A DNA stretch of 64,000 nucleotides from a bacterium (lineage in GTDB: Bacteria; Patescibacteriota; Patescibacteriia; Patescibacteriales; UBA12465), in the NCBI GenBank assembly GCA_021806615.1, contig JAJZRB010000005.1, positions 4,319 to 68,318 on the forward strand. The letters run 5' to 3'. How positions within the stretch are numbered: the first letter of the stretch is position 1; the number at the start of each line of letters is the position of its first letter. Below are positions 11,806 through 31,284 of the stretch, piece by piece. The notes beneath the pieces were generated by a model. That model saw only the letters and a list, made by a program, of their open reading frames with translations, was not told the origin of the DNA and did not search any database. The translations under genes were made by a program, and so were the position numbers.

Positions 11806-12906
11806 TTATTTTATTATTCCTCCGCCTAATACTTGATTTTTATCATAAAAAACGACGCTTTGTCCAGGTGTTACGGCGCGTTGCGGCTGGCGGAACGTGA
11901 CGATGTAATCAGTCTTATTCTTGGGCCTGACTTCGCACGGTACGGCCGGGTGGCCATAGCGGATAACCGCTCCGCACCGGAAAGGGCGCCGTGGCGCAAG
12001 GCCGGAAAGCCAGTTAACTCTAGCCGCGATCAGCCCATCGGCGTAAAGGATATCTTCATTCCAATTCCTGACGACATAAAGGATATTCTTCCGATAATCA
12101 AAGCGGGCGACATAATAAGGACCCGTACCCCCGACCAGTCCCCGCCGTTGGCCGATAGTATAGAGAGGCAGGCCCTGATGTTCGCCGATTTTTTCATTCG
12201 TATCCAGAAGCCTGATTTCGCCCGGCGTCAATTTCAAATATTTTTTCAAGAAATCATTATGATCTCCGGACAAGAAACAGATATCCTGGCTTTCCGCTTT
12301 ACCGGCCACTTTCAACTTAAATTTTTCCGCCAATTTCCTGACTTGCGGCTTTAAGTAAGCGCCTAAGGGGAATAAAAGATGTTTTAATTCATCCGGCCGG
12401 AAAGTATAAAGAAAATAGGATTGATCCTTATTCTTATCTTGAGCCTTGAATAGACGATATTGCCGTCCGACTTTTTTCAAATTCAAATAATGGCCGGTAG
12501 CGACATAATCGAACCCGAGAGCCAAGGCGTGCCGTAATAATAAGCCGATTTTTATCTGACGGTTACAGACGACGCAGGGATTCGGCGTCCGCCCGGCTTC
12601 ATATTCGCTTAGAAAATTATCTACGACCGCCTCTTTGAAGCGTTCGGAGAAATTAAAAGTATAAAATGGGATGCCTATTTTAGCGGCTACCGCCTTCGCG
12701 TCTGACAGAGATTCCAAAGAACAACAGCGGTTCTCCGCTAGAGCGCCCGCCGTTTCATCCTTCCAAAAATGCAAGAAAACGCCAGCTACTTCATAGCCTT
12801 GGTTCTTTAAAAGCTGGGCCGCGACCGATGAATCGACTCCGCCCGACATAGCGACTAAGACCCGTCCGCGTCTTGTCTGTTTCTTTTGTTTAATCTTTGC
12901 CGGCAT
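11806..12906 (-). CDS. mnmA: tRNA-specific 2-thiouridylase MnmA
   Basis: PP-loop VAMSGGVDSSVAA, conserved NPCVVCN, ATGHY, DQSYFL. The gene overlaps the upstream GT4 gene by 17 nt. Confidence 0.93.
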   Translation of the reverse strand: MPAKIKQKKQTRRGRVLVAMSGGVDSSVAAQLLKNQGYEVAGVFLHFWKDETAGALAENRCCSLESLSDAKAVAAKIGIPFYTFNFSERFKEAVVDNFLSEYEAGRTPNPCVVCNRQIKIGLLLRHALALGFDYVATGHYLNLKKVGRQYRLFKAQDKNKDQSYFLYTFRPDELKHLLFPLGAYLKPQVRKLAEKFKLKVAGKAESQDICFLSGDHNDFLKKYLKLTPGEIRLLDTNEKIGEHQGLPLYTIGQRRGLVGGTGPYYVARFDYRKNILYVVRNWNEDILYADGLIAARVNWLSGLAPRRPFRCGAVIRYGHPAVPCEVRPKNKTDYIVTFRQPQRAVTPGQSVVFYDKNQVLGGGIIK

Positions 12907-14071
12907 GCGTTTCTTGAAAAATTTTCAAATATTCTTTAGCCGCCTTATCCCAGTCAAATAATCTTGCCTGTTCATAACCGCGAGCGATAAGCCTGGAGCG
13001 CAGGTCCTTATCATCAAGTATCAGGCCCATCGCCGTCGCGATCTCCTCCGGCTTGAAAGGATTGATAAGCAGGGCCGCGCCGCCTAATACCTCGGGCAAG
13101 CTAGAAACATTAGAAGCGACAACCGGAAGACCGTAAGTCATAGCTTCTAGAGGCGGAAATCCAAAACCCTCATAATATGACGGGTAGACGAAAATGGCTG
13201 CTTGGCTATATAAAATTTCCTTATCTTTTTTACTAATATAACCTAAAAATTTAATATCATGACAATAAGGAGAATCTTTCCAGGCTTCATATATCTTCTT
13301 ATTTTTCCAGCCGGAAGCGCCAGCTAAAACCAATTGCAAGCCGTCCGCCTTTACTCCGGACGTTTCGGTCTTGGCTTTTAAGAGATTAAAAGCCGCGAGC
13401 AAGCCGCAAATATTCTTGCGCGGTTCGATGTTCCCTAAGTATAAGATGAAGGGCCTAGCTAATTTATGGCGGCTCAAGAATTCCTGGGCTTCCGAGGGAG
13501 CAATTTCCCTTTTAGACAAGTTATTGCCGGAATAAACTACCCTGACCTTATCTGGCGCGATACCGGCCAATTCCACGATATCATTCTTAGTATTTTCTGA
13601 AACTGCGATTATCATATCCGCCGTCCGCAACGTCTTCTTGACTCGCAAGGATAAATGCCATAGATTCTTGCGGCTGCTAAAGAATTCCGGATAACGGAGA
13701 AAGGATAGGTCGTGAACCGTGATCACCTTTTTCGGACCGGACTGGCCGGCGCTCAAACGAGTGAAATTGAAATGCGGCGACCAAAAGATATCAACTCCGC
13801 CTAAAATGCGATCTATCTTAGGCCAAGATAAAAATTTCTGAAGCAAATAATTAAATATTTTATTCGGCCAATGCGTGCCGATGACCCGGACCCGTCCGGC
13901 ATTCAAATGATTAAAGCGGCCGTCTAAATTATGGAAAGAATTATAAAACAGCTTATACTCATCCGAGCTCTTGTCTTGGCGCCAGAGCGCCTCTAATAAA
14001 TTAGCGGTATATTCCGATACACCGCTATAATATTTATCCATCAAAACCCTGATATCAATTCCGATCTTCAT
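12890..14071 (-). CDS. glycosyltransferase family 4 (GT-B, retaining)
   Basis: C-terminal E-x7-E signature YYEGFGFPPLEAMTYGLPVV, 393 aa. Confidence 0.85.
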   Translation of the reverse strand: MKIGIDIRVLMDKYYSGVSEYTANLLEALWRQDKSSDEYKLFYNSFHNLDGRFNHLNAGRVRVIGTHWPNKIFNYLLQKFLSWPKIDRILGGVDIFWSPHFNFTRLSAGQSGPKKVITVHDLSFLRYPEFFSSRKNLWHLSLRVKKTLRTADMIIAVSENTKNDIVELAGIAPDKVRVVYSGNNLSKREIAPSEAQEFLSRHKLARPFILYLGNIEPRKNICGLLAAFNLLKAKTETSGVKADGLQLVLAGASGWKNKKIYEAWKDSPYCHDIKFLGYISKKDKEILYSQAAIFVYPSYYEGFGFPPLEAMTYGLPVVASNVSSLPEVLGGAALLINPFKPEEIATAMGLILDDKDLRSRLIARGYEQARLFDWDKAAKEYLKIFQETHAGKD

Positions 14072-14079
14072 AATTTATC

Positions 14080-15192
14080 TTATGGTTTTACCTGCGCGAT
14101 GAATTCCTGCATCCGGCGCTTGAAATTAGCCACTGAAAATTGTTCCGCGTGGCGGCGGATATCGGCCGGCGAAAAATCGGCGCTTTTAAAGCTCTTAATG
14201 GCCGCCGCCAAGGCGGCTGCGCTTTGTTCGGAGAAAAACAGGCCGGTCTTGCCGGCGATGACCGTTTCGGTGGCTCCGCCTTTCTGATAGGCTATTACCG
14301 GCCGGCCGCTGGCCATCGCCTCGACGACGGTAATGCCGAAATCTTCTTCTTGAGGATTGATGAAGGCCTGGGCGCCCGCGAAGAGACGAGCTTTCTCCTC
14401 TTCGCTTATGCGGCCTAAAAATTCGATATTCTCCCTGCCGGCCGCTAAATTTTTAAGCCGCGGCAGATCAATCCCGTCGCCGAATATCTTCAGACGATAA
14501 TCCGGACCCAATCCTTTAAAGGCTTCTATGACCAAGTCTATCCTTTTATAAGGCGCGAGGCGGCAGCCGGCCAAGAAATAACGTTCGGCCGGAGCCTGCC
14601 GGCTCAGGTCGCTCAGGCTGAATCTCTCCGTTTCTACCGGCGGATAGATGATGGCCGAATCGCGTCGATAATACTTCTTGATACGAGCGGCGACCGTCCG
14701 GGAATTGGCGATGAAATAATCGACGCGCTGAGCCGCGCTATAATCCCAAAGGCGCAGGCGCCCGAGAACTAAAGAGATTATCTTTTTCAACCATTTATTA
14801 TAAGGCAATTCATTCAAGTATTCGTGAGCATCGCTCCAGAGATAGCGCGTCGGCGTATGGCAATAGCAGATATGGATCGTATCCGGCGCCGTTATCACTC
14901 CCTTGCTGAAAGCGCTGGCGTCAGAGATCACTAGATCATAAGGCCGTAAATCAAAAAATTCCACAGCCATCGGCATGAAATATAAGTACCATTTATAATG
15001 GCGTATGCCGCCAGGAAGCTTCTGGATGATAGAAGTCTCTATATGCCGGCCGGAAAAATTCTTCGCGACGTTATCCGGTTCATATAAAAGAGTATAAATC
15101 GGCGCCGCCGGAAACATCTCCGCCAGGACTTTCAGGACTTTTTCCGCGCCGCCGTCCTGAGCTAAATGATCATGGATCAAAGCCGCTTTCAT
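14080..15192 (-). CDS. glycosyltransferase family 4
   Basis: EEDFGITVVEAMASGRPVIAY signature, 370 aa. Confidence 0.85.
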   Translation of the reverse strand: MKAALIHDHLAQDGGAEKVLKVLAEMFPAAPIYTLLYEPDNVAKNFSGRHIETSIIQKLPGGIRHYKWYLYFMPMAVEFFDLRPYDLVISDASAFSKGVITAPDTIHICYCHTPTRYLWSDAHEYLNELPYNKWLKKIISLVLGRLRLWDYSAAQRVDYFIANSRTVAARIKKYYRRDSAIIYPPVETERFSLSDLSRQAPAERYFLAGCRLAPYKRIDLVIEAFKGLGPDYRLKIFGDGIDLPRLKNLAAGRENIEFLGRISEEEKARLFAGAQAFINPQEEDFGITVVEAMASGRPVIAYQKGGATETVIAGKTGLFFSEQSAAALAAAIKSFKSADFSPADIRRHAEQFSVANFKRRMQEFIAQVKP

Positions 15193-15210
15193 GGATTAAA
15201 AGATTTAATT

Positions 15211-16626
15211 TTATTCCGCTTGCCGATGCTTGAGCACCGCAAAGGGGGTCTTAAATAAAATAGACAGGTCTAAGAGCAGCGACCAATTCTCGATATAATA
15301 GACATCAAGTTTCGCTTCTTCTTCAAATAAGAGATCGCTACGGCCGGAAACTTGCGCCAAACCGGTGATTCCCGGCTTTATAGTCAGGGTCTTCTTATGA
15401 TAATTTTCATATTTTGCGACCTCCTCTGGCAAATGCGGCCGCGGTCCGACCAAGCTCATCCGGCCGATGAAGACCAAGAACAATTCGGGGAGTTCATCGA
15501 TAGACCAGCGGCGCATGAATTTCCCGACTCTCGTCACGCGCGGATCATCTTTTATCTTGACCATCGGCCCGTCCGTACGCAGATTGCGATCGGCCAGCTC
15601 ATTATAGCGCATGCTGTCGGTATTCGGCGTCATGGAACGGAATTTAAAATATTTGAACGGCATCCCGCCTTCGCCGATACGGGTCACGTATGATCCGTCA
15701 TCGCGACGGGAAAAGAAGATCGGACCGCCGGAATCCAGCAGAATGGCCAGGATAGCCAATAAGATAATCGGGGAGAAGATGATTATGAGCAAGCCGGAGA
15801 CGACGATATCAAAGATACGTTTCAAGATGCGCCCCCAACCTTCCAGGGTGGTCCTCTTCACCTCCACTATCGGGATACCGATGACCTCGGTGACCTCGGT
15901 CTGCAACACTTTTACTTCCAGGAGGTCGGCGACATATTTGAAAGTAATATGGTTTTCATTAGCAAAATCATAGAGGCGTAACGTTTCCGCCTTGCTGAGA
16001 TTCGGGTCGCTTTGGATGATCTCATCTATTTCCCGATCGGCGATGAATTCCGCTAGCTCCTGCGCCGTCTCCAAAGTGAAATCACGCACTCTTTTAACGA
16101 CTGAAAAACCCCCTTTGGTATTCTTGGAAAACTCGGCCAGAAGATTTTCTGTCGTCTTGGAATTCCCGACCAGGATCACCTTATGGACGCCGACGCCGTA
16201 TCGGAATAAAAAGCGTTGGAACCAACGGATAAAGGCGTGGCCCAAGCTGACGTAAATGACCGCGAAAGCCCAACCTATCAAAACGATAAAACGCGAATCA
16301 AATAATTCGCGTTGGAAAAAAATCAAGATCGCTACTAAAGCCAACCCGGTAGAACAAGCGAAAAAGATCTTCTGGATTTCTTGGGCCAATTGCCGCGCCG
16401 TCCTGATCTGGTAAAGGCCGGCAAGCATAAAAATGATTATCCATAAGACGGCGATGAATAAGACTGACTGGAAATATTCCGTAAAAGGCAAGCTAAAAAC
16501 CACGGGCCGGACAGTTACCGACCAATGGGAAAAACGTAAGTAATAAGCCGATATGCCGGCTAAGACAACTAAGAAAAAATCAACCGGCACGAAGAGGGCG
16601 GAAAAAAACGACTCAATTTTTTTCAT
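15211..16626 (-). CDS. polyprenyl-phosphate glycosylphosphotransferase (WbaP/bacterial sugar transferase family)
   Basis: N-terminal multi-TM region followed by the C-terminal catalytic domain: RIFDIVVSGLLIIIFSPI, KFRSM, DELPELFLVFIGRMSLVGPRP. Confidence 0.88.
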   Translation of the reverse strand: MKKIESFFSALFVPVDFFLVVLAGISAYYLRFSHWSVTVRPVVFSLPFTEYFQSVLFIAVLWIIIFMLAGLYQIRTARQLAQEIQKIFFACSTGLALVAILIFFQRELFDSRFIVLIGWAFAVIYVSLGHAFIRWFQRFLFRYGVGVHKVILVGNSKTTENLLAEFSKNTKGGFSVVKRVRDFTLETAQELAEFIADREIDEIIQSDPNLSKAETLRLYDFANENHITFKYVADLLEVKVLQTEVTEVIGIPIVEVKRTTLEGWGRILKRIFDIVVSGLLIIIFSPIILLAILAILLDSGGPIFFSRRDDGSYVTRIGEGGMPFKYFKFRSMTPNTDSMRYNELADRNLRTDGPMVKIKDDPRVTRVGKFMRRWSIDELPELFLVFIGRMSLVGPRPHLPEEVAKYENYHKKTLTIKPGITGLAQVSGRSDLLFEEEAKLDVYYIENWSLLLDLSILFKTPFAVLKHRQAE

Positions 16627-16656
16627 ATTGTCGCCTAAATTTTAGAAAACTAAGGT

Positions 16657-17040
16657 TATTGGGGCAGCCGTAAGCCGGATTCTGTTCTAGCGATCATTTA
16701 TCTAGGCTCGTCATTGCTGACGGGCTCGAGCGAGCTACTTGTCTTTTAGCCGCGACACCTCGCCAAAGGGCCGGACGGCGCGACTAAAGTTTGCTCTTGC
16801 TTCCGATAGGGTTTGCCAGGGTTTCTCCGTCACCGGAGGCTCAAACCGGTAGCCCCGTTAAGGACATCCGGTTTCTTTTCACCTTTTATTCTGTTAAATA
16901 TCCCAGAATTAGTATTGTCTCTGTGGCACTTTCCCTATCCGCCGAAGCGGACGGTGGGCATTACCCACTATCGTTTTTTATGAAGTCCGGACTTTCCTCC
17001 CCGTTTAATAACGAGGCGATCGCCCACTTACCCCAATAAC
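16657..17040 (-). ncRNA. rnpB: RNase P RNA (bacterial)
   Basis: The minus strand contains GGAGGAAAGUCCGGACUUC (universal CR-I). It also contains CCUAGAUAAAUGAUCGCUAGAACAGAAUCCGGCUUAC, which matches E. coli ...CCUAGAUGAAUGACUGUCCACGACAGAACCCGGCUUAUC. The termini pair (UUGGGGUAAG / CUUACGGCUGCCCCAA). Ends are approximate. Confidence 0.92.
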
Positions 17041-17151
17041 GCCATTTATAGTACAATAAAAGATTAAAAAAAGCAAATAAATCAAAAAATTTTATTAAAT
17101 ATTAACTAAAAAATAAAAACTACCACAATTTAATGCGGTAGTTTTATAGGC

Positions 17152-20100
17152 TTATTTAGTCTGGAGGTAAATCTCTTCCACTTGCGCCGGGCTCAAAGCT
17201 CCTTCATAAATTCCTAAGTCGTCTATTTCGGAACTCGCATTATCAGTAAATATCTTCAGATAATTGATATTATCTCCCTCTTTTATCCAAATGAGCGATG
17301 AACTGGCTTTCTCGCCACCATCTACATAAAAGCGTAATTTATAACGATAAGAATCATAGACTAAGGCTAAGTGATGCCAGGCGCTATCATTCGGTATCGC
17401 CTTATCAACTCCTTCCGCTAGAATCCCGTAACTGCCATTAAACCAGAATCCCGGGCGATAAGAATTAACTAAGAAAGCGAGACGATTAGCGCCTCCCGCC
17501 GCCGTACCGTCCAGATAAATATTAGCTCGGCCCTCCCCTGGATAAGCGCTATTGTGCCACCAGAAAGCCAGAGAAATATCGCGCGACTTTATTTCGTCCA
17601 GGTTCGAGGTAAAATCATGGCCGTTGATCGTCTGGATAGCATAATTACCGTGGCTGCGCCCGACCCAAGCTTCAGGCATGATATTAAGAGCCGCATTAGA
17701 TATACTATCCATAGCCATTCCGCCCGCGTCTTCGCTGAAATCCCAGAAATGGATCAAACGCGCTTCCTGCTGCGGTTCACGTCCGGTAAGCGGGCTATAT
17801 GGCGCCTCACGCAGATAATCAGCTAGGATTTCTCCGGCAGAAAGCGGCCTATCCCAAATAGCTGCTTCATCAATAAGCACAGGATCACAGTCTCCATAAA
17901 TTTCCCAAGAATCCATCAGCGGTAAATCAGCCAAGAAATCTTCATGCACTACTTTCTGGCCGTCAATATAAACTTCCCAATAATCCAGAGCCTGGCTTAC
18001 CACCAAAGATACTTGATGCCAGTTTCCGTCAAATTTTGTATCTTTATAATAACGCCAATCAGAATTAGGTAACCCTTCAATAGTCATCATCCCAGGCTCC
18101 AAGATAAGCCGCATCTCATCCCCGTCCGCGTTAGACAGGCTGGAAATAACTCTCGGGAAATTTAGAGATTTTTTATAATAAAAACTCAAAGAAAAACTGT
18201 TCAGATCAGAAGGAGGATTAAGGGGGCCTGAAAATCGGCCGGCGGCCGGACCGACTACCCGAGAGCAATCCCATTTCCCAACTGCCCACTCACCTTCCCC
18301 ATAACACTCGGAAAAATGCCATAGGCCGGCAAGACCGCTGGAAATGATAGGGTCGGGCGGCACGAATAAATCTAAATTCATATCAACGACCGGCTCGGAA
18401 CTGGTAGCTATATTTGGATCATCGGATAATAATAAATCAAAATCGCTTTGATTATCATTATTAAAACCGATGCGATTTAAAAAATAATTATCGCTTATGG
18501 CCGGCGCCGGACCGCTGCCCAGAAAATAAGTCGCGTCCGGACCGAAGCCGACGGCATCCACGATATCAGGATCCGTGCTGGAGCTTATCGCGCCTTTTCC
18601 TAAATAAAAAGTATAACCAGAATCAGCCCAGACAAATTCCGGCCGCGTGGCAATCGCGTCAGCTTGGTCTTGGAAATAATTGTTCGCTTCATCACGGACG
18701 ACTAAATAGTTGCCATGCGCCTTAACTACCGTGCCCCCCGGATAAGAGCCGTCATTCGGATTGCCGAAACGCATCATCAGGCTCGGTTCCTCTGCGGTTT
18801 TTGTCTTAGATAAATGAAAATCAAAAGCGGATAAATCAAGATCATAATCGGTCGGATTATTTATCTCCAGCCAATCGTTGTCGCCGGTCGCGTAAATCTT
18901 ATTGATTAGCGCCAGAATACTGGAGCTAGAAGTCGCCGCTTCTTCCGTAGAAGTCGCTATTTCTCCTGTAGAGGTGGCAACTTCTTCTGTGGAGGTTCCT
19001 ATTCCTTCCGTAATCGTTTCTTCGGTGGTAGTAGCGACTTCGTCGCTGGTTGTCGCTATCTCCTTGGTCGTCGTAGCGGCTTCTTCGGTCGTCGTAGCTA
19101 TTTCTTCAGTCGTCGTAGCTTCATCGCTGCCGATTATTTCCATGGTGGAACTGGCGTTTTCTGACATAAGCGCCGCTCGGGCCGCTACGGCGGACGGATC
19201 AGCGGACGGGAACAAGCGGAAATCAAGCTGATTATTCTCGCTATTATCTTTCCTATCCAAAAAATAATTATCGCTTATGGCCGGCGCCGGACCGCTGCCC
19301 AGAAAATAAGTCGCGTCCGGACCGAAGCCGACGGCATCCACGATATCAGGATCCGTGCTGGAGCTTATCGCGCCTTTTCCTAAATATATGGTATAGCCTG
19401 AACCGGTCCAAGTGAATTCCGTCCGCGTAGCTATGGCATCAGCCTTAGCTTGATAATAAGCATCGGCCGTAGCCCGGACAATCAGGTAATAACCGTGCGC
19501 TTTGATTATCGTGCCGCCCGGGTAAGAGCCGTCAGCGGGGTCACCGAGGCGCATCAATAAAGTAGGATCCTCGGCGGTTTTGGCTCTCTCTAGGCGATAA
19601 CCGGCGGCGGCCAAATCAAAATCATTATCGCCGGGATTGAATAATTCAATAAAATCATTGTCTAGGGTGGCATAAATTTTATTCAATATAGCGATCTTAG
19701 GCTGACCGTCTGCGGCTAGATTAGAGGCCCCGGAGCTGGCCGGAGCAGTAAAATTATTATAGACTACGGGCGGATAATAAGCCGGCGGCGAGGCTTGGCT
19801 ATCGGCCCGTTTATTTTCGGTAGCGGCTTTATTCCCGCTGGCCGCGACTGCAGTATCTTGAGGGCGGCTCAAGACTGAAGAGGGTCGTTTTGAAGAGGCG
19901 GTTTTTCCGGCTACGTTTTTAGGAATGACATCCCCCTGACCGGCGTTATCCTGATGAGATTTAGACGGCACAACTCCAGCTTTCTTGACCGTTACTGAGG
20001 GCGCCGAAGCGACGCTTATCTTGGAAGCCGTGCTTTTAGGGGCTTTAGTCTTGGCGGAGCTTGTCTTGGCGGCGGCTGTTTTTTGAGCCGATTGTGCTCG

Positions 20101-21120: not shown

Positions 21121-21130
21121 AGAATATAAG

Positions 21131-22051
21131 TTAATTATTATAATATCGCTCCCATTGCGCCGCGCTGATTTCCGGGAGCGGCAATTTCCTGCCGGCCAGA
21201 TTATTCAGGGTATCCGCCGCGAAAGCCCGGCTAATATCATCGCCGCCTGTTTTATCAGAATAAATTTCTTGCAAATCTTTTCCGACTTCTTCAGGAAAGG
21301 ATAGATAATGATCAGCTAGCAATAAAACGAGAGAGGATCGCAGATGATTATCCGTGGACGGATCACGCGCGAGCCCGGCGATATCTCCCAGCTGCTTGAG
21401 AGAAAGCGCCGATGCTCGGCCATGATCACCGCCGGATCCGGCTCCATGGCTGCTCAGGGCTTGGACGGCCGCTTCTTTGACTAGCGGATCTTCGCCGCTC
21501 GTTAGGAGAGAAAGATAAAAATCATTTCCTGTTTGTTTAGACCCGGGCGGCGCTTTTTTATCGGAAGATAAGGCCTCCGGGCTGAAATAGGAGATGATTC
21601 CGGCTCGTAATTCCGCCCGGCCGGAAGTATTAGATAGATATTCACGGATATACGGAGGCGGATTGTCCGCATAAGCTGAAGATAATATACGTATCAATTC
21701 AACACGGAATCCCGTTTCTAGTCCTTCATCTAAAAAATAACTCCGCAAAAGGTTTTTTAGCCGGTAAGAAGGGCTGGAGGCTAGGTCGCCGATAAGCTCT
21801 TGAACCGCGACGCGCCGGAAAGAGAGACAATCTTCATGGCAAAGCTTCTCTTTCTCCCAAGAATTCCTCAATTCCGCTAACTTAAGAACTGGCCGGTCAA
21901 AGCTGAAAAAAACCAAGGATACGTAGCCGGCGATTAAAACTAACGCGATAGCCGCTCCGCCTAAAAATAATCTTTTTTTAAAGCTGGCGCTTCTACGCCA
22001 CTGGCCGGCGGCGGCCAAAAACATCTTCAACTTGCTTTTCAATTTGTCCAT
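21131..22051 (-). CDS. hypothetical membrane-anchored protein (one N-terminal TM; helical-repeat-like ectodomain)
   Basis: 306-aa ORF with TM segment LFLGGAAIALVLIAGYVSLVFF. It ends 10 nt before the giant gene, so it is probably co-transcribed. Confidence 0.55.
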   Translation of the reverse strand: MDKLKSKLKMFLAAAGQWRRSASFKKRLFLGGAAIALVLIAGYVSLVFFSFDRPVLKLAELRNSWEKEKLCHEDCLSFRRVAVQELIGDLASSPSYRLKNLLRSYFLDEGLETGFRVELIRILSSAYADNPPPYIREYLSNTSGRAELRAGIISYFSPEALSSDKKAPPGSKQTGNDFYLSLLTSGEDPLVKEAAVQALSSHGAGSGGDHGRASALSLKQLGDIAGLARDPSTDNHLRSSLVLLLADHYLSFPEEVGKDLQEIYSDKTGGDDISRAFAADTLNNLAGRKLPLPEISAAQWERYYNN

Positions 22052-22225
22052 AAGATTAAAAAAAATTAATAATATTTCCTTCTATTTCCCGGCCGGCCGC
22101 TAGGCTGCATTCTCCGGCTTTTCCACTATAACAAAAGAGGGCTGATGGCCCTTTAAATTTTTCCTAAAATAATAAATGCTCCAATACCTGCAGAAAACCA
22201 GATAAACAAATCTTTTTCCCCGCCA

Positions 22226-22254
22226 TTAAAAAATCAGACCGTCTGGCCTGATTT
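22226..22254 (-). terminator. terminator downstream of the Wzy_C/TPR gene
   Basis: Minus-strand RNA: AAUCAGGCC-agac-GGUCUGAUU followed by UUUUU. Confidence 0.65.
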
Positions 22255-22278
22255 TCATGGGGATACCTATCTTTTTTT

Positions 22279-24576
22279 CTAGTTCGCTTTCTTCAGTGCC
22301 GGACTGCTCGTAGCTTTGGTCTTTTCCACGGTCTTTAAGAAATCGGCCCAATCCGTCTCTGACTTCGGATACAACAAGACCGCCCGCCGGTGTGCCGTTT
22401 CTGCTCCGGCCTGATTGCCGGATAGAAGATAAAGCTTGCCTAAGTTAAGCCAGACTTCGGCGGAATCGCTGTTTAAAATACTCAGCCGTTCGGCTAATTT
22501 CAAAGCCCTAGCGTAATCGCTGTTAGCCGTAAAATATGACAGAGCGCTGACTAGCAGGCTATTAGAATTGATAGTATCTACGCCGCCTAAATCAACGCAT
22601 CGGCCTAAAGAATTTCCCAGCTTCTTATCATCTTTCATGGCCGCCTTGTTCTGGCTATCCATGAATACATAGAACTGGGCCAAGCGGCAATAAGCTTCAG
22701 AATAATCCGGATTAAGGCTGATAGCATAATCTATGGTACTGAGCGCTTCCTCCTTTTCGCCGCGGACAAGCTGCATCTGCGCCTTAACCAGATAGACAGG
22801 CACCCGTCCCGGGCTCGCTTCTATGGAACGGTCTATAGCCTCAATCGCCTGCCTGGAGTAATAATTGAATTTATCTAAATCCTGATAATAATGCCGCGCG
22901 GCGGTATCCAATATCTGAGCGAGCTGCATCTGCATCAAGCTGTCCTGCGGGTTGTAAGATACGTTCTCCTGCGCCAAGGAAATCGTATAGTCTAGGGTCG
23001 CTTGCGCCTGGCTAGACGTCAGAGAATCTAGCATGTTAGGATCTATCGTTATCAAATTGATAAGGGTCGTCCGGCCGTCGCGATCTAAGGGGGTGCCGAC
23101 TAAGGCTTTCTGGTAAGCTAAGACTCCATCCGCTAAATTGCCGTCCACGATATCGCTATAGCCGACAATGACGCCTTGGAACATCTTCCAGACCCTAATA
23201 TTATAATTATAAGCGAAAAGATAAGCGCCAAAAATTAAGATGATAAGGGTTACCCATTCCCATTGGCGGCTTAAAACAAGAATATGCCTGACATCATCGC
23301 CTTCCTCTGTTCCTGCCGGTTCTTCAATCAGCCAATATATGAAACCGAGCATGACCATTAATCCGACATAAGTGACTAAAGAGTCAAAAACGGCCAGATT
23401 CTGGATAAAATACGCGGCCATCAAGGCGAGGAGGACTAGAATCTCCAAATTCTTCTTAGAGCTTTCCTCGCCGGTTCCCGCTCGGCCGCCGTTCTTCTTG
23501 AACTCTGAAGCTAAATAATATAAAGCCGCGGCGAAGATGCTCAGATAAGCTGCTAAACCGAACAATCCGGTCGTGGAAGCGATATCTATAAGATTATTAT
23601 GCGCCCGATCAAAATAAGTCTCGGTCCGGGCGTAATTAAAAAATTTAGGATCAAAATGACGATCGAAGATAATGGCGTAATTGCCGAAACCCGTGCCGAA
23701 AAGCGGATGATATTTGAAATCAAGAGCCGCGCTTTTCCAAGAGATGAGCCTAGTCTGGAAAGTGCTTTTTTCAAAAGTCAGATTCCTTAAAAAACTATTC
23801 TGGAACCAAGCGGCCTGATATTGGGAAAAAACGAAGATGACAGCCAAGACCGCTAATAAGAAAATAAGTAATGAGGATCGCCTTAACGCCCTATTCCTAT
23901 GGCTGAGCCCCAGAAAGAATAATAAGAGCAAGAAGCTCAGGAATAAGCCGATAATGGCGCCCGAGGTGTGGCAACGCCAGAATTCTAGCAGCATGACGAT
24001 TATCGGCAGGAGATAAAGCGAGCGGCGGCCGAAGCTCTGGCTGCGCCCGAATAAGATCAAGGCGAAGAAGATATTGAAAATGAGGTAACCGCTCACATAA
24101 GCGGTATTCCCTATCGTAGCGTAAACTTCCCCCTGTCCGCTCAAGCCTATGAAGCTGATGATGGTAGCGATAAGGACCGAAGAGAATAATAAGGACCGCC
24201 ACTGCGCCCAAGTGCGGAAAACCGTAACCAATATGAAATAAAAGATCAAAAAGTGCAGAAGATGGAAAAGCCCGAGCATGCGTTCAGCGTCTCCCCAGAA
24301 GCTCAGGTTCTTATCTACGCTGACGAGATAAGAAGCGATAATGGCCGCGAAAAATACCAATAAGCCGTAGCTGATATAGTTCTTCTTCGGGCGATAAGCG
24401 GGATAACGCATGATAAAAACGAGCCAAACCGCCAATAAGAATTCCATCAGGATATTAAAACTCAGCTGTTTGGAGGTAATGAACGGAAAAAGAAGGTCTT
24501 TGAAGACGAAAAAAATGATGAGGAGAGAGGCTAATAATCCCCCCTGGAGTATCCTTAGATAAGCTTTTGCGGGCAT
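22279..24576 (-). CDS. O-antigen-ligase-like (Wzy_C) polytopic membrane protein with a C-terminal TPR domain
   Basis: About 11 hydrophobic segments, Wzy_C-type loop (FDRAHNNLIDIASTTGLFGLAAY), and a C-terminal ~300 aa of TPR-like repeats (AISLNPDYSEAYCRLAQFY, AEVWLNLGKLYLLSGNQAGAETAHRRAVLLYP). The start is taken at MPAKAYL (24576); the track start is 24639. Confidence 0.75.
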   Translation of the reverse strand: MPAKAYLRILQGGLLASLLIIFFVFKDLLFPFITSKQLSFNILMEFLLAVWLVFIMRYPAYRPKKNYISYGLLVFFAAIIASYLVSVDKNLSFWGDAERMLGLFHLLHFLIFYFILVTVFRTWAQWRSLLFSSVLIATIISFIGLSGQGEVYATIGNTAYVSGYLIFNIFFALILFGRSQSFGRRSLYLLPIIVMLLEFWRCHTSGAIIGLFLSFLLLLFFLGLSHRNRALRRSSLLIFLLAVLAVIFVFSQYQAAWFQNSFLRNLTFEKSTFQTRLISWKSAALDFKYHPLFGTGFGNYAIIFDRHFDPKFFNYARTETYFDRAHNNLIDIASTTGLFGLAAYLSIFAAALYYLASEFKKNGGRAGTGEESSKKNLEILVLLALMAAYFIQNLAVFDSLVTYVGLMVMLGFIYWLIEEPAGTEEGDDVRHILVLSRQWEWVTLIILIFGAYLFAYNYNIRVWKMFQGVIVGYSDIVDGNLADGVLAYQKALVGTPLDRDGRTTLINLITIDPNMLDSLTSSQAQATLDYTISLAQENVSYNPQDSLMQMQLAQILDTAARHYYQDLDKFNYYSRQAIEAIDRSIEASPGRVPVYLVKAQMQLVRGEKEEALSTIDYAISLNPDYSEAYCRLAQFYVFMDSQNKAAMKDDKKLGNSLGRCVDLGGVDTINSNSLLVSALSYFTANSDYARALKLAERLSILNSDSAEVWLNLGKLYLLSGNQAGAETAHRRAVLLYPKSETDWADFLKTVEKTKATSSPALKKAN

Positions 24577-24649
24577 AAAATTACAATATTCATAGATTAT
24601 AAGGAAATTATAACACAGCCTTTCATCGGCTGTCGACATTCATCAAAAA

Positions 24650-24684
24650 AAATAATAAAAAAACAGCCCGAAAAGGCTGTTTTA
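24650..24684 (-). terminator. terminator downstream of the ferritin gene
   Basis: Minus-strand RNA: AAAACAGCC-uuuucg-GGCUGUUU followed by a U-run. Confidence 0.7.
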
Positions 24685-24709
24685 TCCCAAAGCTATGCTA
24701 GACCAGAAC

Positions 24710-25231
24710 TTAAGCCTTGGCCGCATAAGGGCCGGAGGGGACGTAAGCGCGCGCGCCCAGCTCCTGATCTAAGATATAGAGGGCGGAGCCGTCGTTACCG
24801 ATGAGCTTTATTTTCTCAATAACCGCAGTCGCGTTAGCCTCTTCTTCCACCTGTTCATCAATATACCATTTGATAAAAGACTCTAAAGCATAGTCTTTCT
24901 CTTCTCTCGCTACTTCATAAATCTTGCCGATAAGAGCGGTGATATGCTTTTCATGCGCTAAGCCAGAGGCGAATATTTCGCCGATGGTCTTGGCCGATCC
25001 TAAATCCGGCTCACTAATGGCTAAGAGCTTCGGTTCTTCATTCCTGTCCACTAAGAATCGGAAAAAACCCAAAGCATGGTCATTTTCTTCCTTAGCCTGG
25101 ACTTGCATCCAATTCGCGGCGCCTTTTAAATTCATATTCTCCAGCCGGGCGGCGAGAGCGATATAGAGATAGAAAGAATAGAATTCTTCCTGGATCTGCT
25201 TATTCAAGATATTTTTGACAGTATCTTTCAT
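24710..25231 (-). CDS. ftn: ferritin (non-heme, Ftn-like)
   Basis: Ferritin-like four-helix pattern with ferroxidase ligand regions: QIQEEFYSFYLY, QAKEENDHALGFFRFL, HEKHIT, DEQVEEE. 173 aa. Confidence 0.85.
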   Translation of the reverse strand: MKDTVKNILNKQIQEEFYSFYLYIALAARLENMNLKGAANWMQVQAKEENDHALGFFRFLVDRNEEPKLLAISEPDLGSAKTIGEIFASGLAHEKHITALIGKIYEVAREEKDYALESFIKWYIDEQVEEEANATAVIEKIKLIGNDGSALYILDQELGARAYVPSGPYAAKA

Positions 25232-25286
25232 ATATTTAATACTTAATAATTAGTAGAGTCCAGTATAGCACAATTCAAACCAACAG

Positions 25287-25312
25287 AAAAGGACCCCCGA
25301 AGGGGTCCTTTT
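25287..25312. terminator. terminator downstream of the S-layer-like gene
   Basis: Perfect hairpin AAAAGGACCCC-cgaa-GGGGTCCTTTT. Confidence 0.75.
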
Positions 25313-25356
25313 GCTGTTCCGATTTATGTTTAGGAAATCGGGAAAACTGGAATTCC

Positions 25357-28300
25357 TTAGTAGTTGAAGGAATAGCCGTTAACCGGCAAATTCTTTACTA
25401 AGTAGCCATTTCCGTAAGAAGCGGAAGTGGTATCGTTCCATTGCCAGTCAGTACCAGAAGCTAACGCATCAGCTGAAGTTAAGTTCAAGGCTAAATTGTT
25501 AGAATTCAAGGCACCAAGGGCTCCAACGCTAACCTTAACGACATAGGTCTTGCTGCTACCAGAAGAGATTAAAGAATCAGAGCTGAAAGCAACAGCGGCC
25601 GGCGTGTTAGTAGTGGTTAGAGAAACCGGAGCGGCAATCAAGTTAGTAGCCATATCGTTGATGTCATAGACACCGGCGACAGCTACCGTGCTAGCGCCGT
25701 TGAATAACGGAGTAACAGTGAAGGTCTTGAAATTAACCGGGCCGTTAGAAGCGGCGACAGTAAATCTCATCACTTCCTGAGTACCGACATTCAAAGTGCG
25801 GCTAGTCGGAACGTAATCCGACAAGGAAACAGTCGGTTTAGCAGCGACAACTAACATGGTGTTAGCAGCGACAGTCAAACCGGTCTTTTCCGCCGGGGTG
25901 TTGGAACCGATCTGGTATTTAACGTAAGTGGCCGTTAACTTAGACTGGGTTCTAGTCGCCGTAGCGTTAGTACCGACAGTGTTGTAGTTAGCAGTCACAG
26001 TGACGTTAGTACCGACCGTGTTGACCGGAACATCGATATTCAATGTGCCATCAAAGAAAGCGACGTAATCAGAGCCCGATAATACAACCGGGGCGCTTAC
26101 GGTTCCGATGGTCAAAGAATTGACGGAAGTTCCTTCAGCCGTACCGGCATTGTTGGTAACTTTGAACTTCAAGCTGGTAATCTTAGCCGCGCCGTTGGTA
26201 GCTACAAATTTGTAGACAGCCGCAGTCGCGCTAGTGCCACCGACCACCAAAGCGGACGGAGCATCTGAAGAGACCAAAGTCGGATCAGATAAAGTACCAG
26301 TCAAGAAAGTCAAGACCTGACCAGCGGTGTTAGCATCAGCCGTTAAGTTGGTGCTGACCGTTCTAGCCGAGACCTTCAAGTCACTGACAGTCAAAGTGCT
26401 GTTATCGTTGACTTGAGCTACATCAGCATAGATATCAATGGTCTTGGTCTGACCAGGTTGCAAGGTGAAGTTAACCGGGAAGTTGTTAACGCCGGCTATC
26501 GGATTACCAATAACGTTGGTCGGATCTTCAGAAGTATAAAGATTGGAGACGTTAGTGATAACGATGTTACCGCCGCTTACAGCTAAAGTAGCCGCTAAAT
26601 TGGTCGCTCTAACAGCCTCAGAAGAACCAGCCTGGAATGTGAAGGAACCGATCTTCTGTTTCTGGACATTCGGAGAGATGTTCTGAGCTGAAGCGAAAGC
26701 GTTGTTCTTAGACAGGCTGGATAAGCCAGTAGAAACAATCGTCAAAGCTTTAGTCGCGTAAGTTGTTCCGCCGGAAGTGGCGAAAGAAGTCACGCCCTGG
26801 AAAGCTCCGGCAACCGAAGCCGCATTAGTCGTAATTGTGGTAGAGGTGGTTGAACCGCTGTTCATAACTAAATCACCTTTGATTTCCACGGTGGCAGTAG
26901 AGCCAGCCGGGACGGTGAATAAGTTAGTGGTCCCGTAGGTCTTAGTAGCGGTGTAACCGGTCACAGTAGCGCCGGAAACAACGGCATTCTGAGAACTACC
27001 AACCTGAGAGCCGTTAACGTAGATAGCCAGGTTGTTAACACCATCGCCAGAAGCGGTATTCCCGTTGAAGAGAACAGTCGCGTTTAACGTGGTAACCTTC
27101 ATGTCTTCGCCATAAGCTTTCATGGTGTATTTCGCTAAGGTCACATTAGAAGCGCCCTTAACTACTTGGGTAGCGGCAAAAGTCGGGTCAGCCGCAATCA
27201 CCAAAGAACCAACGTTAATATTGGCTGAAGTGGTGGTTTGCGGTAAGCCAGTCGCAGCGACATTAACGTTGTAGTTGGTATCAACTAAAACGATATCGGA
27301 AGCGGTCTGGATGGAGAAGCTGAAATTGGTATTAGAGCCCTTGATGATATCGCCTCTCAATTCTACGGTCCTGTTGCCAGTGCTCAATAGATAAGGAGCG
27401 GCGGATAAATCAAAGTTAACTCTATTATCGCTATTGACGGAAGAAGCCGAACCGACTTGGGTTCCATCAACATATAATTTCAGATTCTGGATAGCATCGC
27501 TAGCTACTGAACCGATCTGTCTGAAGCTGACATACTTTAAATTAACAGCTTTGTTGCTGATAGTTAAAGGAGCGGACCAAAGAGTCGCGTTCATCGTACC
27601 GGCATTGACATTACCAGAACTGGTAACAGTACCGGCGACGACAGTCGCTAAATCAGTCGCAGTCACAACAGACATTAAATTACCAGTAAGCGGGAAAGAG
27701 CCAGTTACGCTAGCGCCAGTGGAAGTAACATCGGAAGCGGCGTTAACCGAGAAACCGACATTACCAGTGGCATTAGCCGCGACATCAGCTTTCACAGTGA
27801 TCGCTCTGGTCTGACCAGCGTTAACAGTAAATAATCCATTGTTATTAGAGAAAGTAACTACGCCGTTAGATAAGGAACCGGCGTCAGTCAATTTGGTATT
27901 TCCATCATAAAGATAGATAGACGATAAAGTGCTATCGGAAGAAATACCAACTCTCTTCAATTTTAAGGTCTTAACCGTAACTGCACCGTCATTAGCGGCG
28001 GTGAAGTTAAAGGTAGCCATATCAGCGATTGATTGGCCACCGCCAGAGGTAGTAACAACGTTAGAAGCCGCTGCGGTAGAAGAGCTTAAAGAAACCATCA
28101 AGCCGGAACCGGTGACAACCGGACCGGAGCCGCCATTCTGGGCAACATTGACTAAGGCAGTTTCCGCGGCGCTAACTTCAGTTCCGCCGGCCGTAACGGT
28201 CGTAGCAGAAGTGATAACGTTAGCTAATTGGAATCTGTTAGCAGTCAAAGCCGCTTCGTTGGCAACTTTTCTGTAGTTAGTACCATCATAGTAATAAACG

Positions 28301-28818
28301 TCAGCACCGCTGGCATTTTTTACTAAGGAACCGACCGGAGTAGCGCCATTAGCTAAAACAGCGCCGACAGTGTAGTTGGTGAAGAAAGCATCCGGAACGT
28401 CAACTACTCTCTTGTTCCAGTTAGTACCGTATAGAGCAGCCGCTTGCGCTTCGCTCTGGATCTTTCTGAGAGTGCCGTTAGGTTCAACAGCATAGACAGA
28501 AGGATCGGTAGTGATCTTCACTAACTTCGTACCCGGTCTCATGGTCACATTGCCGCCCAATGGGTAGCTTTGTAATTCAGCTGACGGGATGGTTACCACG
28601 CCGCTGAAATCAGGGTACCAGGAGAAATAAGTAGTGGAGTTAGGGAAGACATATCTCTTGCCATCGGAGCCAAGGTAATATACGGAGGAGTTGCCGGCCA
28701 TTTTGATCAAGTCGCCAGCCGAAGCGGCGGCCGAAGCCGGAGAAACAACGATACCGCTCATCGCGATAACCGATAATACCATTACGCCGATAACTAAGAG
28801 TTTGCGTAATTTTTTCAT
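25357..28818 (-). CDS. S-layer-like / major cell-surface protein, Thr/Ser/Val/Ala/Asn-rich, with repeated beta-sandwich-like modules
   Basis: Signal peptide: MKKLRKLLVIGVMVLSVIAMSGIVVSPASA. I could find no Cys in 1153 aa. Module motifs recur: IYLYDGNTKL, LKLYVDGTQVGS, LAIYVNGSQVGS. The N-terminal repeat occurs twice (GDLIKMAGNSSVYYLGSDGKRYVF and GSLVKNASGADVYYYDGTNYRKV). Confidence 0.65.
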   Translation of the reverse strand: MKKLRKLLVIGVMVLSVIAMSGIVVSPASAAASAGDLIKMAGNSSVYYLGSDGKRYVFPNSTTYFSWYPDFSGVVTIPSAELQSYPLGGNVTMRPGTKLVKITTDPSVYAVEPNGTLRKIQSEAQAAALYGTNWNKRVVDVPDAFFTNYTVGAVLANGATPVGSLVKNASGADVYYYDGTNYRKVANEAALTANRFQLANVITSATTVTAGGTEVSAAETALVNVAQNGGSGPVVTGSGLMVSLSSSTAAASNVVTTSGGGQSIADMATFNFTAANDGAVTVKTLKLKRVGISSDSTLSSIYLYDGNTKLTDAGSLSNGVVTFSNNNGLFTVNAGQTRAITVKADVAANATGNVGFSVNAASDVTSTGASVTGSFPLTGNLMSVVTATDLATVVAGTVTSSGNVNAGTMNATLWSAPLTISNKAVNLKYVSFRQIGSVASDAIQNLKLYVDGTQVGSASSVNSDNRVNFDLSAAPYLLSTGNRTVELRGDIIKGSNTNFSFSIQTASDIVLVDTNYNVNVAATGLPQTTTSANINVGSLVIAADPTFAATQVVKGASNVTLAKYTMKAYGEDMKVTTLNATVLFNGNTASGDGVNNLAIYVNGSQVGSSQNAVVSGATVTGYTATKTYGTTNLFTVPAGSTATVEIKGDLVMNSGSTTSTTITTNAASVAGAFQGVTSFATSGGTTYATKALTIVSTGLSSLSKNNAFASAQNISPNVQKQKIGSFTFQAGSSEAVRATNLAATLAVSGGNIVITNVSNLYTSEDPTNVIGNPIAGVNNFPVNFTLQPGQTKTIDIYADVAQVNDNSTLTVSDLKVSARTVSTNLTADANTAGQVLTFLTGTLSDPTLVSSDAPSALVVGGTSATAAVYKFVATNGAAKITSLKFKVTNNAGTAEGTSVNSLTIGTVSAPVVLSGSDYVAFFDGTLNIDVPVNTVGTNVTVTANYNTVGTNATATRTQSKLTATYVKYQIGSNTPAEKTGLTVAANTMLVVAAKPTVSLSDYVPTSRTLNVGTQEVMRFTVAASNGPVNFKTFTVTPLFNGASTVAVAGVYDINDMATNLIAAPVSLTTTNTPAAVAFSSDSLISSGSSKTYVVKVSVGALGALNSNNLALNLTSADALASGTDWQWNDTTSASYGNGYLVKNLPVNGYSFNY

Positions 28819-30211: not shown

Positions 30212-30237
30212 TAGTATACGTATAATTAGCTGAAATG

Positions 30238-30846
30238 TTACAGTTTTCCTTCTTTTTCTACGAGTTCTTTAAGGGCGCTTAAAGCCCGATGTAGCGTTAC
30301 CCGGATACTGCCATTGCTTTTTCCGCTAATATCGGCTATTTCTTCTATTGACAAATCATTTATGAATTTCATTATAATGAGTTCCCGATACTCTTCTTTA
30401 AGCTTGGGCATGAGCTTTTTAATCAGGCTCAAGTTAGCTTCCTGGTCTAAGCGTTCCGAAGGGCTTTGCGCTTCATCAATAACATCTATTGGGCGTTCTT
30501 CATTATCTAAAGAAACGGTAATTTTATTGCCTGTTTCGCGGTAATAATCAATAATTGATGTCCTGGCTATCTTATACAAAAGAGACCGCAAAGTTTTAGC
30601 GTCCTCTAAAGTTTTATTCTGGATATAGTTCCAGGTCTTTAAAAAGATAATGGAAGTCAGATCATTAGCCTCTTCGCGCTTCCCTATCTTAAAATAAACG
30701 AAACGATGGATTTCGGCCACGTTTTCGTCATAAATCTTAATGAAAGCCTGTTTGTCTCTATTTTTCAGACGGCTTAGAATCTGCTTATTTTTAAATTTTT
30801 TTATCGGGTTAAGAGCCATGTTGTCAGATATTTTTTCTTTTAACAA
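30238..30846 (-). CDS. RNA polymerase sigma-70 family factor (ECF-like)
   Basis: Region 2 (IHRFVYFKIGKREEANDLTSIIFLKTW) and region 4 HTH (LSIEEIADISGKSNGSIRVTLHRALSALKEL). Confidence 0.85.
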   Translation of the reverse strand: MLKEKISDNMALNPIKKFKNKQILSRLKNRDKQAFIKIYDENVAEIHRFVYFKIGKREEANDLTSIIFLKTWNYIQNKTLEDAKTLRSLLYKIARTSIIDYYRETGNKITVSLDNEERPIDVIDEAQSPSERLDQEANLSLIKKLMPKLKEEYRELIIMKFINDLSIEEIADISGKSNGSIRVTLHRALSALKELVEKEGKL

Positions 30847-31080: not shown

Positions 31081-31084
31081 AGTA

Positions 31085-31227: not shown

Positions 31228-31230
31228 TTT

Positions 31231-31250: not shown

Positions 31251-31284
31251 TAAATAATTATTTTATTTTTTATTAGCATATTTA

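Follow-up and report, generated by a model that had tools for sequence, protein, structure and literature searches.

The closest described counterparts of the locus considered here are the slg systems of S-layer glycosylation in Geobacillus stearothermophilus NRS 2004/3a and Paenibacillus alvei, which combine WsaP/WsfP, glycosyltransferases (GTs), and the protein O-oligosaccharyltransferases (O-OTases) WsaB/WsfB (PMC2943079). These systems operate in a monoderm envelope and rely on a WbaP-type phosphoglycosyl transferase (PGT) with five transmembrane (TM) helices and a C-terminal catalytic domain, on cytoplasmic GTs, and on a Wzy_C transferase that either carries a C-terminal TPR (WsfB) or has a TPR protein encoded beside it (WsaA beside WsaB); the target S-layer gene is monocistronic and, in Geobacillus, located near the cluster, and wsfB is monocistronic as well (PMC2943079). 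The same combination of a WbaP-type PGT, GTs, and a TPR-bearing Wzy_C transferase (the latter compared with WsaB/WsfB by description) is found in a 64-kb stretch of a Patescibacteria contig, hereafter the window, where a block at positions 12890–28818, lying wholly on the minus strand, encodes these enzymes together with two giant secreted proteins, giant1 and giant2. The locus is probably a surface-protein glycosylation or anchoring system built around a predicted WaaL-type ligase. It differs from slg in several respects: the block has neither an ABC or Wzx exporter nor nucleotide-sugar genes, its glycan genes are conserved at the housekeeping level rather than being strain-variable, and giant2 has no SLH domain, both its S-layer status and its glycan being only candidate.

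Other enzymes with a Wzy_C core also invite comparison. PglL/PglS from Neisseria, Burkholderia, and Acinetobacter contain such a core with conserved Arg and His residues (PMC3643930, PMC12645811). By way of the published equivalences to E. coli WaaL, PglL R298 and H349 correspond to R297 and H347 of the window protein, and the en bloc transfer of glycan from undecaprenyl diphosphate (Und-PP) catalyzed by PglL/PglS is the mode proposed here. Unlike them, the window protein lacks PglL_A and Wzy_C_2, has Ser instead of the first conserved Arg, possesses an extra TM helix and a TPR domain of ~290 residues, and belongs to a monoderm host. TacL from Streptococcus pneumoniae is a Wzy_C ligase of a monoderm free of lipopolysaccharide (LPS) with an Und-PP-linked glycopolymer as a donor, and its product is anchored in the envelope and bound by surface proteins (PMC5727136). 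When compared by description, TacL differs in being 397 aa long, in having no TPR and no reported giant surface-protein neighbor, and in using a glycolipid acceptor. WaaL from Cupriavidus metallidurans (CmWaaL, 7TPG) shares with the window protein the 12-TM topology, the large outer loop, and the residues R265 and H313, but a lipid A-core acceptor is unexpected in Patescibacteria, the R191 equivalent is Ser, and the window protein adds TM13 and the TPR.

Finally, TfpW from Pseudomonas aeruginosa bears a periplasmic C-terminal TPR modelled on the OGT TPR, and its gene adjoins that of its pilin target (bioRxiv 10.1101/2020.04.19.049825); the differences are its GT-C core, which is ArnT/Emb-like with a DDX motif, and the pilin nature of its targets. 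For TfpW and TfpO/PilO alike, the enzyme gene is immediately downstream of the target gene (bioRxiv 10.1101/2020.04.19.049825; PMC12645811), and the enzymes TfpO, TfpM, and PglS have their substrate genes close by (PMC12645811). Pilin adjacency of the TfpO/PilO/TfpM type, in which a C-terminal Ser/Thr of a type IV pilin serves as the acceptor, is absent here, no pilin domain being present among the neighbors of the ligase gene (ferritin, giant2, a 306-aa protein, and giant1).

The probable Wzy_C/TPR ligase and the glycan-assembly genes

Homologues close to the window proteins come only from metagenome-assembled genomes labelled “Patescibacteria group”, Falkowbacteria, Parcubacteria, or Sungbacteria, and, judging by these matches, the source organism is a bacterium of the Patescibacteria (Candidate Phyla Radiation, CPR). 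Its relatives were recovered from landfill-leachate and lake samples. A first-pass annotation had listed a PGT, two GT4 enzymes, a Wzy_C/TPR protein, and two signal-peptide proteins; Pfam and TIGR03025 searches place all of them on the minus strand where that annotation had put them, with the motifs it had quoted. In the direction of transcription, the gene order is sigma, DUF5667-like, giant2, ferritin, Wzy_C/TPR, 306-aa, giant1, RNase P RNA, PGT, GT4b, GT4a, and mnmA. The principal features are as follows:

25357–28818, minus: giant2, a 1153-aa secreted protein with a signal peptide; candidate acceptor or partner of the ligase
22279–24576 (open reading frame (ORF) as listed, 22279–24639), minus: Wzy_C/TPR protein, 765 aa, with Pfam Wzy_C and TPR families
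23542–23967, minus: Wzy_C domain, whose outward loop holds invariant R297 and the D344-R-A-H347-N-N motif
22282–23172, minus: TPR domain (ORF residues 490–786), predicted to lie outside the membrane
24607–24636, minus: promoter-like site of the Wzy_C/TPR gene, TCGACA-18-TATAAT with an upstream TG, 11/12 matches
17152–21120, minus: giant1, a 1322-aa secreted protein with a signal peptide, a C92 permuted-papain amidase domain, two LTD, and two ConA-like LamG domains (Pfam)
15211–16626, minus: PGT, an initiating polyprenyl-phosphate hexose-1-phosphate transferase of the WbaP/WcaJ type, Bac_transf (206 bits) and CoA_binding_3
14080–15192, minus: GT4b, Glycos_transf_1 (105 bits) and Glyco_transf_4
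12890–14071, minus: GT4a, Glycos_transf_1 (117 bits) and Glyco_transf_4

The Wzy_C/TPR protein, which contains RAHNNLIDIASTTGLFG, matches Wzy_C (PF04932) over residues 225–366 with 59.1 bits against a cut-off of 31.7, and several TPR families across residues 595–766. The true start of the gene is Met22 (24576), since this Met is invariant in homologues and used by other gene callers, and the promoter-like site just upstream of it is the best match in the 19.5 kb scanned. An AlphaFold2 (AF2) model built from 33 homologues (pLDDT 84, pTM 0.80) comprises 12 TM helices, of which TM9 and TM10 are connected by a 77-residue loop (residues 273–349); beyond this core come an acidic linker, TM13 (458–485), and a TPR superhelix of ~290 residues. 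In WaaL, both termini are cytoplasmic and the TM9–TM10 loop is outside. Because a 13th helix follows the WaaL-like 12-TM core, the TPR domain is predicted from the model to be extracytoplasmic and to lie beside the catalytic loop. When the PDB was searched both by sequence and by fold, the sole membrane-protein match was WaaL 7TPG (sequence E 4e-6; Foldseek match to 7tpg_B with E 3.6e-5, a TM-score of 0.64 normalised to WaaL, and 16% identity), while the TPR part matched consensus TPR proteins and the substrate-binding TPRs of OGT and SPY (SPINDLY).

HMMER aligns R297 and H347 to R265 and H313 of CmWaaL, the motifs being closely similar (AHNNLIDIASTTGLFGL vs. AHNDIVEAASTTGIPGL). Both residues are invariant among close homologues (H347 in 33/33), and among distant members and paralogues (18 aligned) R297 occurs in all and H347 in 17, the exception being L071_b (here and below, related loci are designated by L and a number). 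According to the paper on CAZy classification, the acceptor-activating position is occupied by His in GT121 ligases and by Asp or Glu in related polymerases (PMC10920833). Since His occupies the CmWaaL H313 position, the sequence favors a ligase/transferase rather than a Wzy polymerase. Together with WaaL as the only membrane match in the PDB, this bears out the earlier placement of the protein on the ligase side of Wzy_C. Thus, in its modelled fold and in two of the three catalytic residues, the protein is a WaaL-type ligase with predicted activity.

A polymerase role, in which the protein would assemble a capsule-like or teichuronic-acid-like polymer from trisaccharide repeats supplied by the PGT and the two GT4s, is therefore highly improbable. 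In its favor, the Pfam family Wzy_C spans polymerases and ligases, the product of one PGT and two GTs would have the size of a repeat unit, and TPR scaffolds belong to several polysaccharide export systems according to a reference cited in PMC2943079. Apart from the His in 17/18 members, it is disfavored by the absence of Wzx, Wzz/PCP, and LCP genes from the ORFs scanned in the 64-kb window. It is likewise disfavored by the conservation of the Wzy_C/TPR family, which is 54–70% identical across more than 120 protein clusters, whereas Wzy polymerases go down to 16% identity between serotypes (PMC10920833). A profile search at E <= 1e-30 retrieved about 2,600 clusters (50% identity) of this family; the best 150 matches are mostly full-length proteins of ~700–800 aa with equal architecture, plus some shorter fragments. 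The database label of the family is just “O-antigen ligase family protein”.

The assignment of the glycan-assembly genes is straightforward. The PGT contains DELPELFLVFIGRMSLVGPRP and reaches 381 bits with TIGR03025 (cut-off 295), and the two GT4 enzymes carry the E-x7-E motifs EDFGITVVE and EGFGFPPLE. Median identities to orthologues are 79% for the PGT, 73% for GT4b, and 62% for GT4a, compared with 80% for MnmA. Within the block there are no nucleotide-sugar genes, and the 64-kb window contains no lpx/kdt/waa genes. Genes related to the carrier lipid are located elsewhere in the window, namely those for undecaprenyl-diphosphate synthase (50177–50878) and a PAP2 phosphatase-LssY_C fusion (47812–49422). 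The last 17 nt of GT4a (12890–12906) also form the beginning of mnmA, a translational tie of a tRNA-modification gene to the glycan operon.

Gene neighborhoods of the ligase across Patescibacteria

The comparison set consists of 88 related loci, 78 of them non-redundant, and the counts below refer to loci with enough flank. At the clade level, the PGT gene lies downstream of the ligase gene in 31/36 loci, and giant2 lies upstream of it in 26 of the 29 non-redundant clade loci. In L004 and L056, which lack both giant1 and the 306-aa gene, rnpB-PGT-GT4-GT4 still comes after the ligase gene, directly in L056 and with one small ORF between them in L004. However, clade-level synteny was dismissed as functional proof since the conserved block also carries MnmA, ParAB, RNase P RNA (rnpB), and an ATP-grasp ligase. 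The clade gene order being uninformative, rearranged and distant neighborhoods were therefore sampled.

Eight neighborhoods were sampled for members that are just 26–36% identical to the window ligase. In five of them (L092, L094, L095, L097, and L099), a giant2 homologue with 24–41% identity is directly upstream of the ligase gene, and in three of these five (L092, L097, and L099) it is preceded by a sigma/DUF5667 pair. Two or three tandem Wzy_C paralogues follow the giant2 homologue in L092, L094, and L099. Elsewhere, L096 has an LTD/fn3 giant upstream of the ligase and three GT4 genes downstream; L098 (8635–12916) has a secreted S8/FG-GAP protein, a Wzx flippase, a GT4, and a GT2 near it; and in L097 (12297–17704) the ligase is followed by two GT-C genes of the PMT/PMT_2 type and an ABC exporter. 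In the Sungbacteria locus L090, the ligase gene sits inside a glycan cluster (PGT, NeuB, UDP-GlcNAc 2-epimerase, and CMP-sugar synthetase) with no giant protein.

As for other loci, in which synteny is broken, the ligase is accompanied in L077 by GT4s, UDP-glucose dehydrogenase, an epimerase, GtrA-GT4, and a radical SAM protein, in L071 by a GT2, the two GT4s, and a second Wzy_C/TPR paralogue, and in L053 by two GT4s and a GT2, while the ligase neighbors in L061 and L085 are housekeeping or metabolic only. Overall, glycan genes of differing kinds stand beside the ligase in L053, L071, L077, L090, L092, L096, L097, and L098. Because the links with giant2 and with lipid-linked glycan assembly recur while the remaining neighborhood differs, these associations look functional, as far as gene order can tell, rather than inherited. 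The comparative data thus support a real functional module in which giant2 is only a candidate for the protein acceptor. The proposed link between the ligase and the 1153-aa surface protein is corroborated by the five distant lineages, and the association of the ligase with glycan genes and giant2 now rests on firmer evidence than was available to the first-pass annotation.

The paralogues deserve separate mention. Wzy_C(/TPR) paralogues are located at 10001–14578 in L092, 4309–11512 in L094, 10001–14377 in L099, and 6323–8533 and 14420–16912 in L071; whether tandem or nearby, they keep the catalytic His, L071_b excepted. In L097 and L098, varied export and transfer machinery is apparently plugged into one ligase family.

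It is very unlikely that the genes form no functional system, being neighbors only by conserved clade gene order and serving unrelated processes. Such a reading would account for MnmA, ParAB, RNase P RNA, and the ATP-grasp ligase in the syntenic block, for its division into at least four transcription units, and for the ferritin gene inserted in some genomes. It also agrees with L053, L061, and L085, where the ligase gene is found amid genes for tRNA synthetase, transporter, translation, Fe-S cluster, or central-metabolism functions, with no PGT or giant protein in the 7–10 kb available downstream. Nevertheless, it is contradicted by the adjacency of giant2 and Wzy_C/TPR genes, which persists at 26–36% ligase identity amid otherwise changed neighbors, as well as by no fewer than eight rearranged or distant loci in which differing glycan genes adjoin the ligase.

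The division of the block into at least four transcription units follows from strong terminator-like hairpins after giant2, ferritin, and giant1 and from the ligase’s own promoter. The features concerned are the following:

25287–25312, minus: terminator-like hairpin after giant2, an 11-bp stem (6 GC pairs) with a T run behind it; implies a monocistronic giant2
24710–25231, minus: ferritin gene (Ferritin, 120 bits), interposed and outside the system
16656–17035, minus: RNase P RNA gene (RF00010, 207 bits), directly upstream of the PGT operon

The ferritin gene has its own terminator at 24660–24683 and occurs at the equivalent place in just 4/29 related loci. Thus, the genes of the sixteen-kb envelope block reported earlier are indeed present, but they are interrupted by three others, those for RNase P RNA, ferritin, and the 306-aa protein, and are divided among several transcription units.

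Candidate acceptors and the proposed mode of glycan transfer

The protein giant2 has a combined Ser and Thr (S+T) content of 23.9%, no Cys, and a pI of 5.9. No Pfam family scored above the cut-off, and a PDB sequence search gave no match. Its AF2 model (pLDDT 84) consists of an N-terminal alpha/beta region followed by approximately nine Ig-like beta-sandwich domains, the protein being all-beta after residue 235; a Foldseek search of this model against the PDB returned generic Ig arrays only (hydin, PrgB, and alpha-2-macroglobulin) and no S-layer-specific match. The family is Patescibacteria-wide, and its annotation is always “hypothetical”. The features of giant2 and giant1 considered below, together with the gene preceding giant1, are:

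28363–28725, minus: 120-aa aromatic-rich module (giant2 residues 32–152), the most conserved part of the giant2 family
18931–19203, minus: giant1 linker 2, low-complexity Thr/Ser/Glu/Ala, with S+T of 0.40–0.42 per 40 aa; candidate O-glycosylation region
21131–22051, minus: 306-aa unknown protein with a TM helix at its N-terminus and an ectodomain of helical repeats; 10 nt separate the gene from that of giant1 downstream

A Peptidase_M23 protein carries the 120-aa module at its C-terminus (P0514, residues 210–330; 60% identity) and a cupredoxin protein at its N-terminus (P0515, residues 30–153; 54% identity), both carriers being Patescibacteria proteins. The module matches no Pfam family, and invariant aromatic residues are abundant in it. 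Because the module is portable, position-independent, and constrained, by sequence it looks like a putative envelope, cell-wall, or glycan-binding anchor.

In giant1, the domains are joined by S/T/A-rich linkers, and the overall S+T content is 15.0%, two linkers locally reaching 40%. The earlier description of both giants as Ser/Thr-rich therefore holds for giant2, while in giant1 it applies only to these two linkers. Linker 2 overlaps 21-nt tandem repeats at 18927–19119 (~4–5 copies in two adjacent arrays) that encode a 7-aa ‘ATTTEE[IV]’-type linker. Homologues of giant1 are present in 30/36 loci and missing from L004 and L056; their Ala/Ser/Pro/Thr-rich linkers are conserved in composition but hypervariable in sequence. 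The 306-aa protein gives no Pfam match even at E <= 5 and no PDB sequence match, and it has a homologue with 22–44% identity in 28/36 loci.

From these features, the following mechanism can be proposed. The PGT and the two GT4s, to judge from their family membership, would work at the cytoplasmic face and assemble on undecaprenyl phosphate an oligosaccharide that is short and invariant, and a flippase encoded outside the window would move it outward. The Wzy_C/TPR protein would act as an inverting ligase, its catalytic loop with R297 and H347 moving the glycan en bloc to an acceptor hydroxyl. The external TPR superhelix, which the position of the 13th helix is predicted to bring beside this loop, would dock wall-anchored giant2, encoded immediately upstream; the conserved adjacency and the analogy with WsfB, TfpW, TfpO, and PglS suggest this step. 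In this scheme, the Wzy_C/TPR protein would be a protein O-OTase dedicated to giant2, with the giant1 linkers as further possible substrates; on the strength of sequence, model, and analogy, this can be put forward only tentatively, at slightly less than an even chance. Substrate-like traits are in line with it: giant2 is 24% S+T, and PglL prefers disordered Ala/Ser/Pro-rich regions (PMC12645811), which the giant1 linkers resemble in composition.

A number of observations weigh against the proposed O-OTase role. The synteny of PGT and GT4 genes at the clade level is, taken alone, lineage gene order. A single operon is ruled out by the terminators, the separate ligase promoter, and the intervening RNA gene, and no flippase is found, neither Polysacc_synt nor ABC-2 proteins occurring among the scanned ORFs of the window. 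Four members of the ligase family (L053, L061, L085, and L090) are situated among housekeeping genes with no giant protein nearby. PglL_A (PF15864) and Wzy_C_2 (PF11846) were not found in the Pfam scan at E <= 0.01, which rules out membership in the PglL class, and the position of CmWaaL R191, the donor-phosphate ligand, is occupied by Ser226 (23962–23964). Moreover, the 120-aa module fits a wall-anchored glycan-binding protein as well as a glycosylated one, Wzy_C ligases in monoderms can use glycolipid acceptors, as TacL does (PMC5727136), and the adjacency of giant2 could reflect an arrangement of the ‘anchor polymer plus anchored protein’ kind.

Owing to the absence of PglL_A and Wzy_C_2 and the Ser at the R191 position, the protein falls outside the known O-OTase classes. 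This Ser is invariant in the window subfamily (window, L095, L071_a, L077, L053, and L061), whereas all distant members have Arg, and a C651/C681 pair in the TPR domain is invariant within the Ser226-bearing subfamily and restricted to it. Ligases of the subfamily, devoid of the canonical donor-binding Arg, may use a non-canonical lipid-linked donor.

The chief alternative, somewhat less likely, is a TacL/WaaL-like ligase that would join the PGT/GT4 glycan or polymer to a membrane glycolipid, giving a lipoglycan or an analogue of lipoteichoic acid, or to a wall component. In such a case, giant2 and the other proteins with the 120-aa module would bind the glycan non-covalently, and the TPR would scaffold assembly rather than select a substrate. 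The position-independent module, 54–60% identical across unrelated proteins and with invariant aromatics, is typical of wall/glycan anchors, and the conservation of the PGT and GT4b (79% and 73% vs. 80% for MnmA) suggests an invariant structural glycan. In Clostridioides difficile, the S-layer gene slpA reportedly adjoins the anchor-polymer synthesis genes of the AP locus, and in Bacillus anthracis sap is said to adjoin the anchor-polymer synthesis gene csaB; these arrangements, with a surface protein encoded beside anchor-polymer genes, would be precedents for giant2. In addition, GT121 ligases have been reported from many Gram-positive bacteria (PMC10920833), and TacL itself exemplifies a Wzy_C ligase that serves a glycolipid acceptor where LPS is lacking (PMC5727136). 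On the other hand, TacL and WaaL have no TPR, fused or adjacent TPRs having been reported for protein-modifying enzymes (PMC2943079; bioRxiv 10.1101/2020.04.19.049825). Further, it is giant2, not the PGT gene, that stays most tightly coupled to the ligase gene in distant lineages, and two or three tandem His-bearing paralogues are hard to square with a single lipid acceptor.

TacL also invalidates a step of the first-pass annotation, which had argued that the lack of LPS makes a WaaL-like role unlikely and a protein acceptor the more economical choice: this does not follow, since TacL acts on a glycolipid in a bacterium that has no LPS (PMC5727136). A published analysis of a CPR genome described an organism without lipid A/LPS genes and called the envelope of all CPR studied unclear (PMC5220378). 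Of the proposal of surface-protein O-glycosylation as a whole, the ligase type, the predicted outward TPR, and the link to giant2 are retained; missing are PglL_A and Wzy_C_2, and the acceptor is only a candidate.

A broader but rather unlikely generalization is that of a hitherto unrecognized phylum-wide envelope-assembly module in which giant2 would be the S-layer-like major surface protein of many Patescibacteria, anchored through its module, controlled by a dedicated sigma/DUF5667 pair, and serviced by one to three dedicated TPR ligases whose genes directly follow its own. The kind of system is known, Wzy_C en bloc glycan transfer with S-layer/protein O-glycosylation as the closest model, but it is located in a phylum for which no description was found in the literature searched: the search gave nothing on protein glycosylation or Wzy_C ligases in Patescibacteria, and a 2026 preprint on CPR pili does not mention glycans. 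The analysis names concrete candidates, i.e., the Ig-repeat protein giant2, the portable anchor module, the TPR-bearing ligase family, and the glycan operon conserved at the housekeeping level, and raises the questions of what coats ultra-small episymbionts and whether this coat is glycosylated. If the enzyme is indeed an O-OTase, it would represent a new class alongside PglL, PglS, TfpO, and TfpM, possibly useful in glycoengineering.

Putative regulators and other features of the window

Two genes precede giant2 on the same strand:

30238–30846, minus: sigma-70 factor of the extracytoplasmic function (ECF) type, Sigma70_r2 and r4_2; first gene of the sigma/DUF5667-like/giant/Wzy_C-TPR module
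29309–30211, minus: DUF5667-like protein (DUF5667, 24.1 bits, under the cut-off of 27)

The sigma factor gene is found upstream of the giant protein gene in 25/29 loci with enough flank and also in distant L092, L097, and L099, where homologues of the DUF5667-like protein match DUF5667 outright. The latter protein may be a partner of the sigma factor, in an anti-sigma or envelope role, and the pair are possibly dedicated regulators of giant2. The sigma and DUF5667(-like) pair is kept before giant2 across deep divergence (L092, 4060–5748; L097, 2706–4533; L099, 3903–5430), and in these three loci a small HTH_17 gene is ahead of it. In related loci, small HU-like (Bac_DNA_binding) genes are located upstream of the sigma factor. 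Two segments of the window, 30001–32000 and 62001–64000, have a markedly low G+C content (0.35–0.36 vs. ~0.46 elsewhere), the former spanning the intergenic region upstream of the sigma gene.

The RNase P RNA gene is directly upstream of PGT-GT4-GT4-mnmA on a shared strand in 6/6 other loci tested (L003, 17216–17550; L004, 13573–13975; L005, 17397–17798; L007, 17237–17618; L056, 12571–12965; L070, 18053–18416), some of which are without giant1. This adjacency of RNase P RNA and PGT could arise from co-transcription or a shared strong promoter.

Further upstream of the module, at 32185–35558 on the minus strand, an 822-aa double ATP-grasp protein (D-Ala-D-Ala-ligase C-terminal, ATP-grasp_4, and LAL_C2) is encoded, followed by an Acetyltransf_6 protein. 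The pair is kept in this position in related loci, the ATP-grasp protein being 73–97% identical, and may act in the chemistry of the peptidoglycan peptide stem. Elsewhere in the window, there is an unusual fusion of an EamA transporter with riboflavin kinase (50914–52188), and a 696-aa protein (6426–8516, plus strand) shows a weak match to MutS domain V and no further MutS domains.

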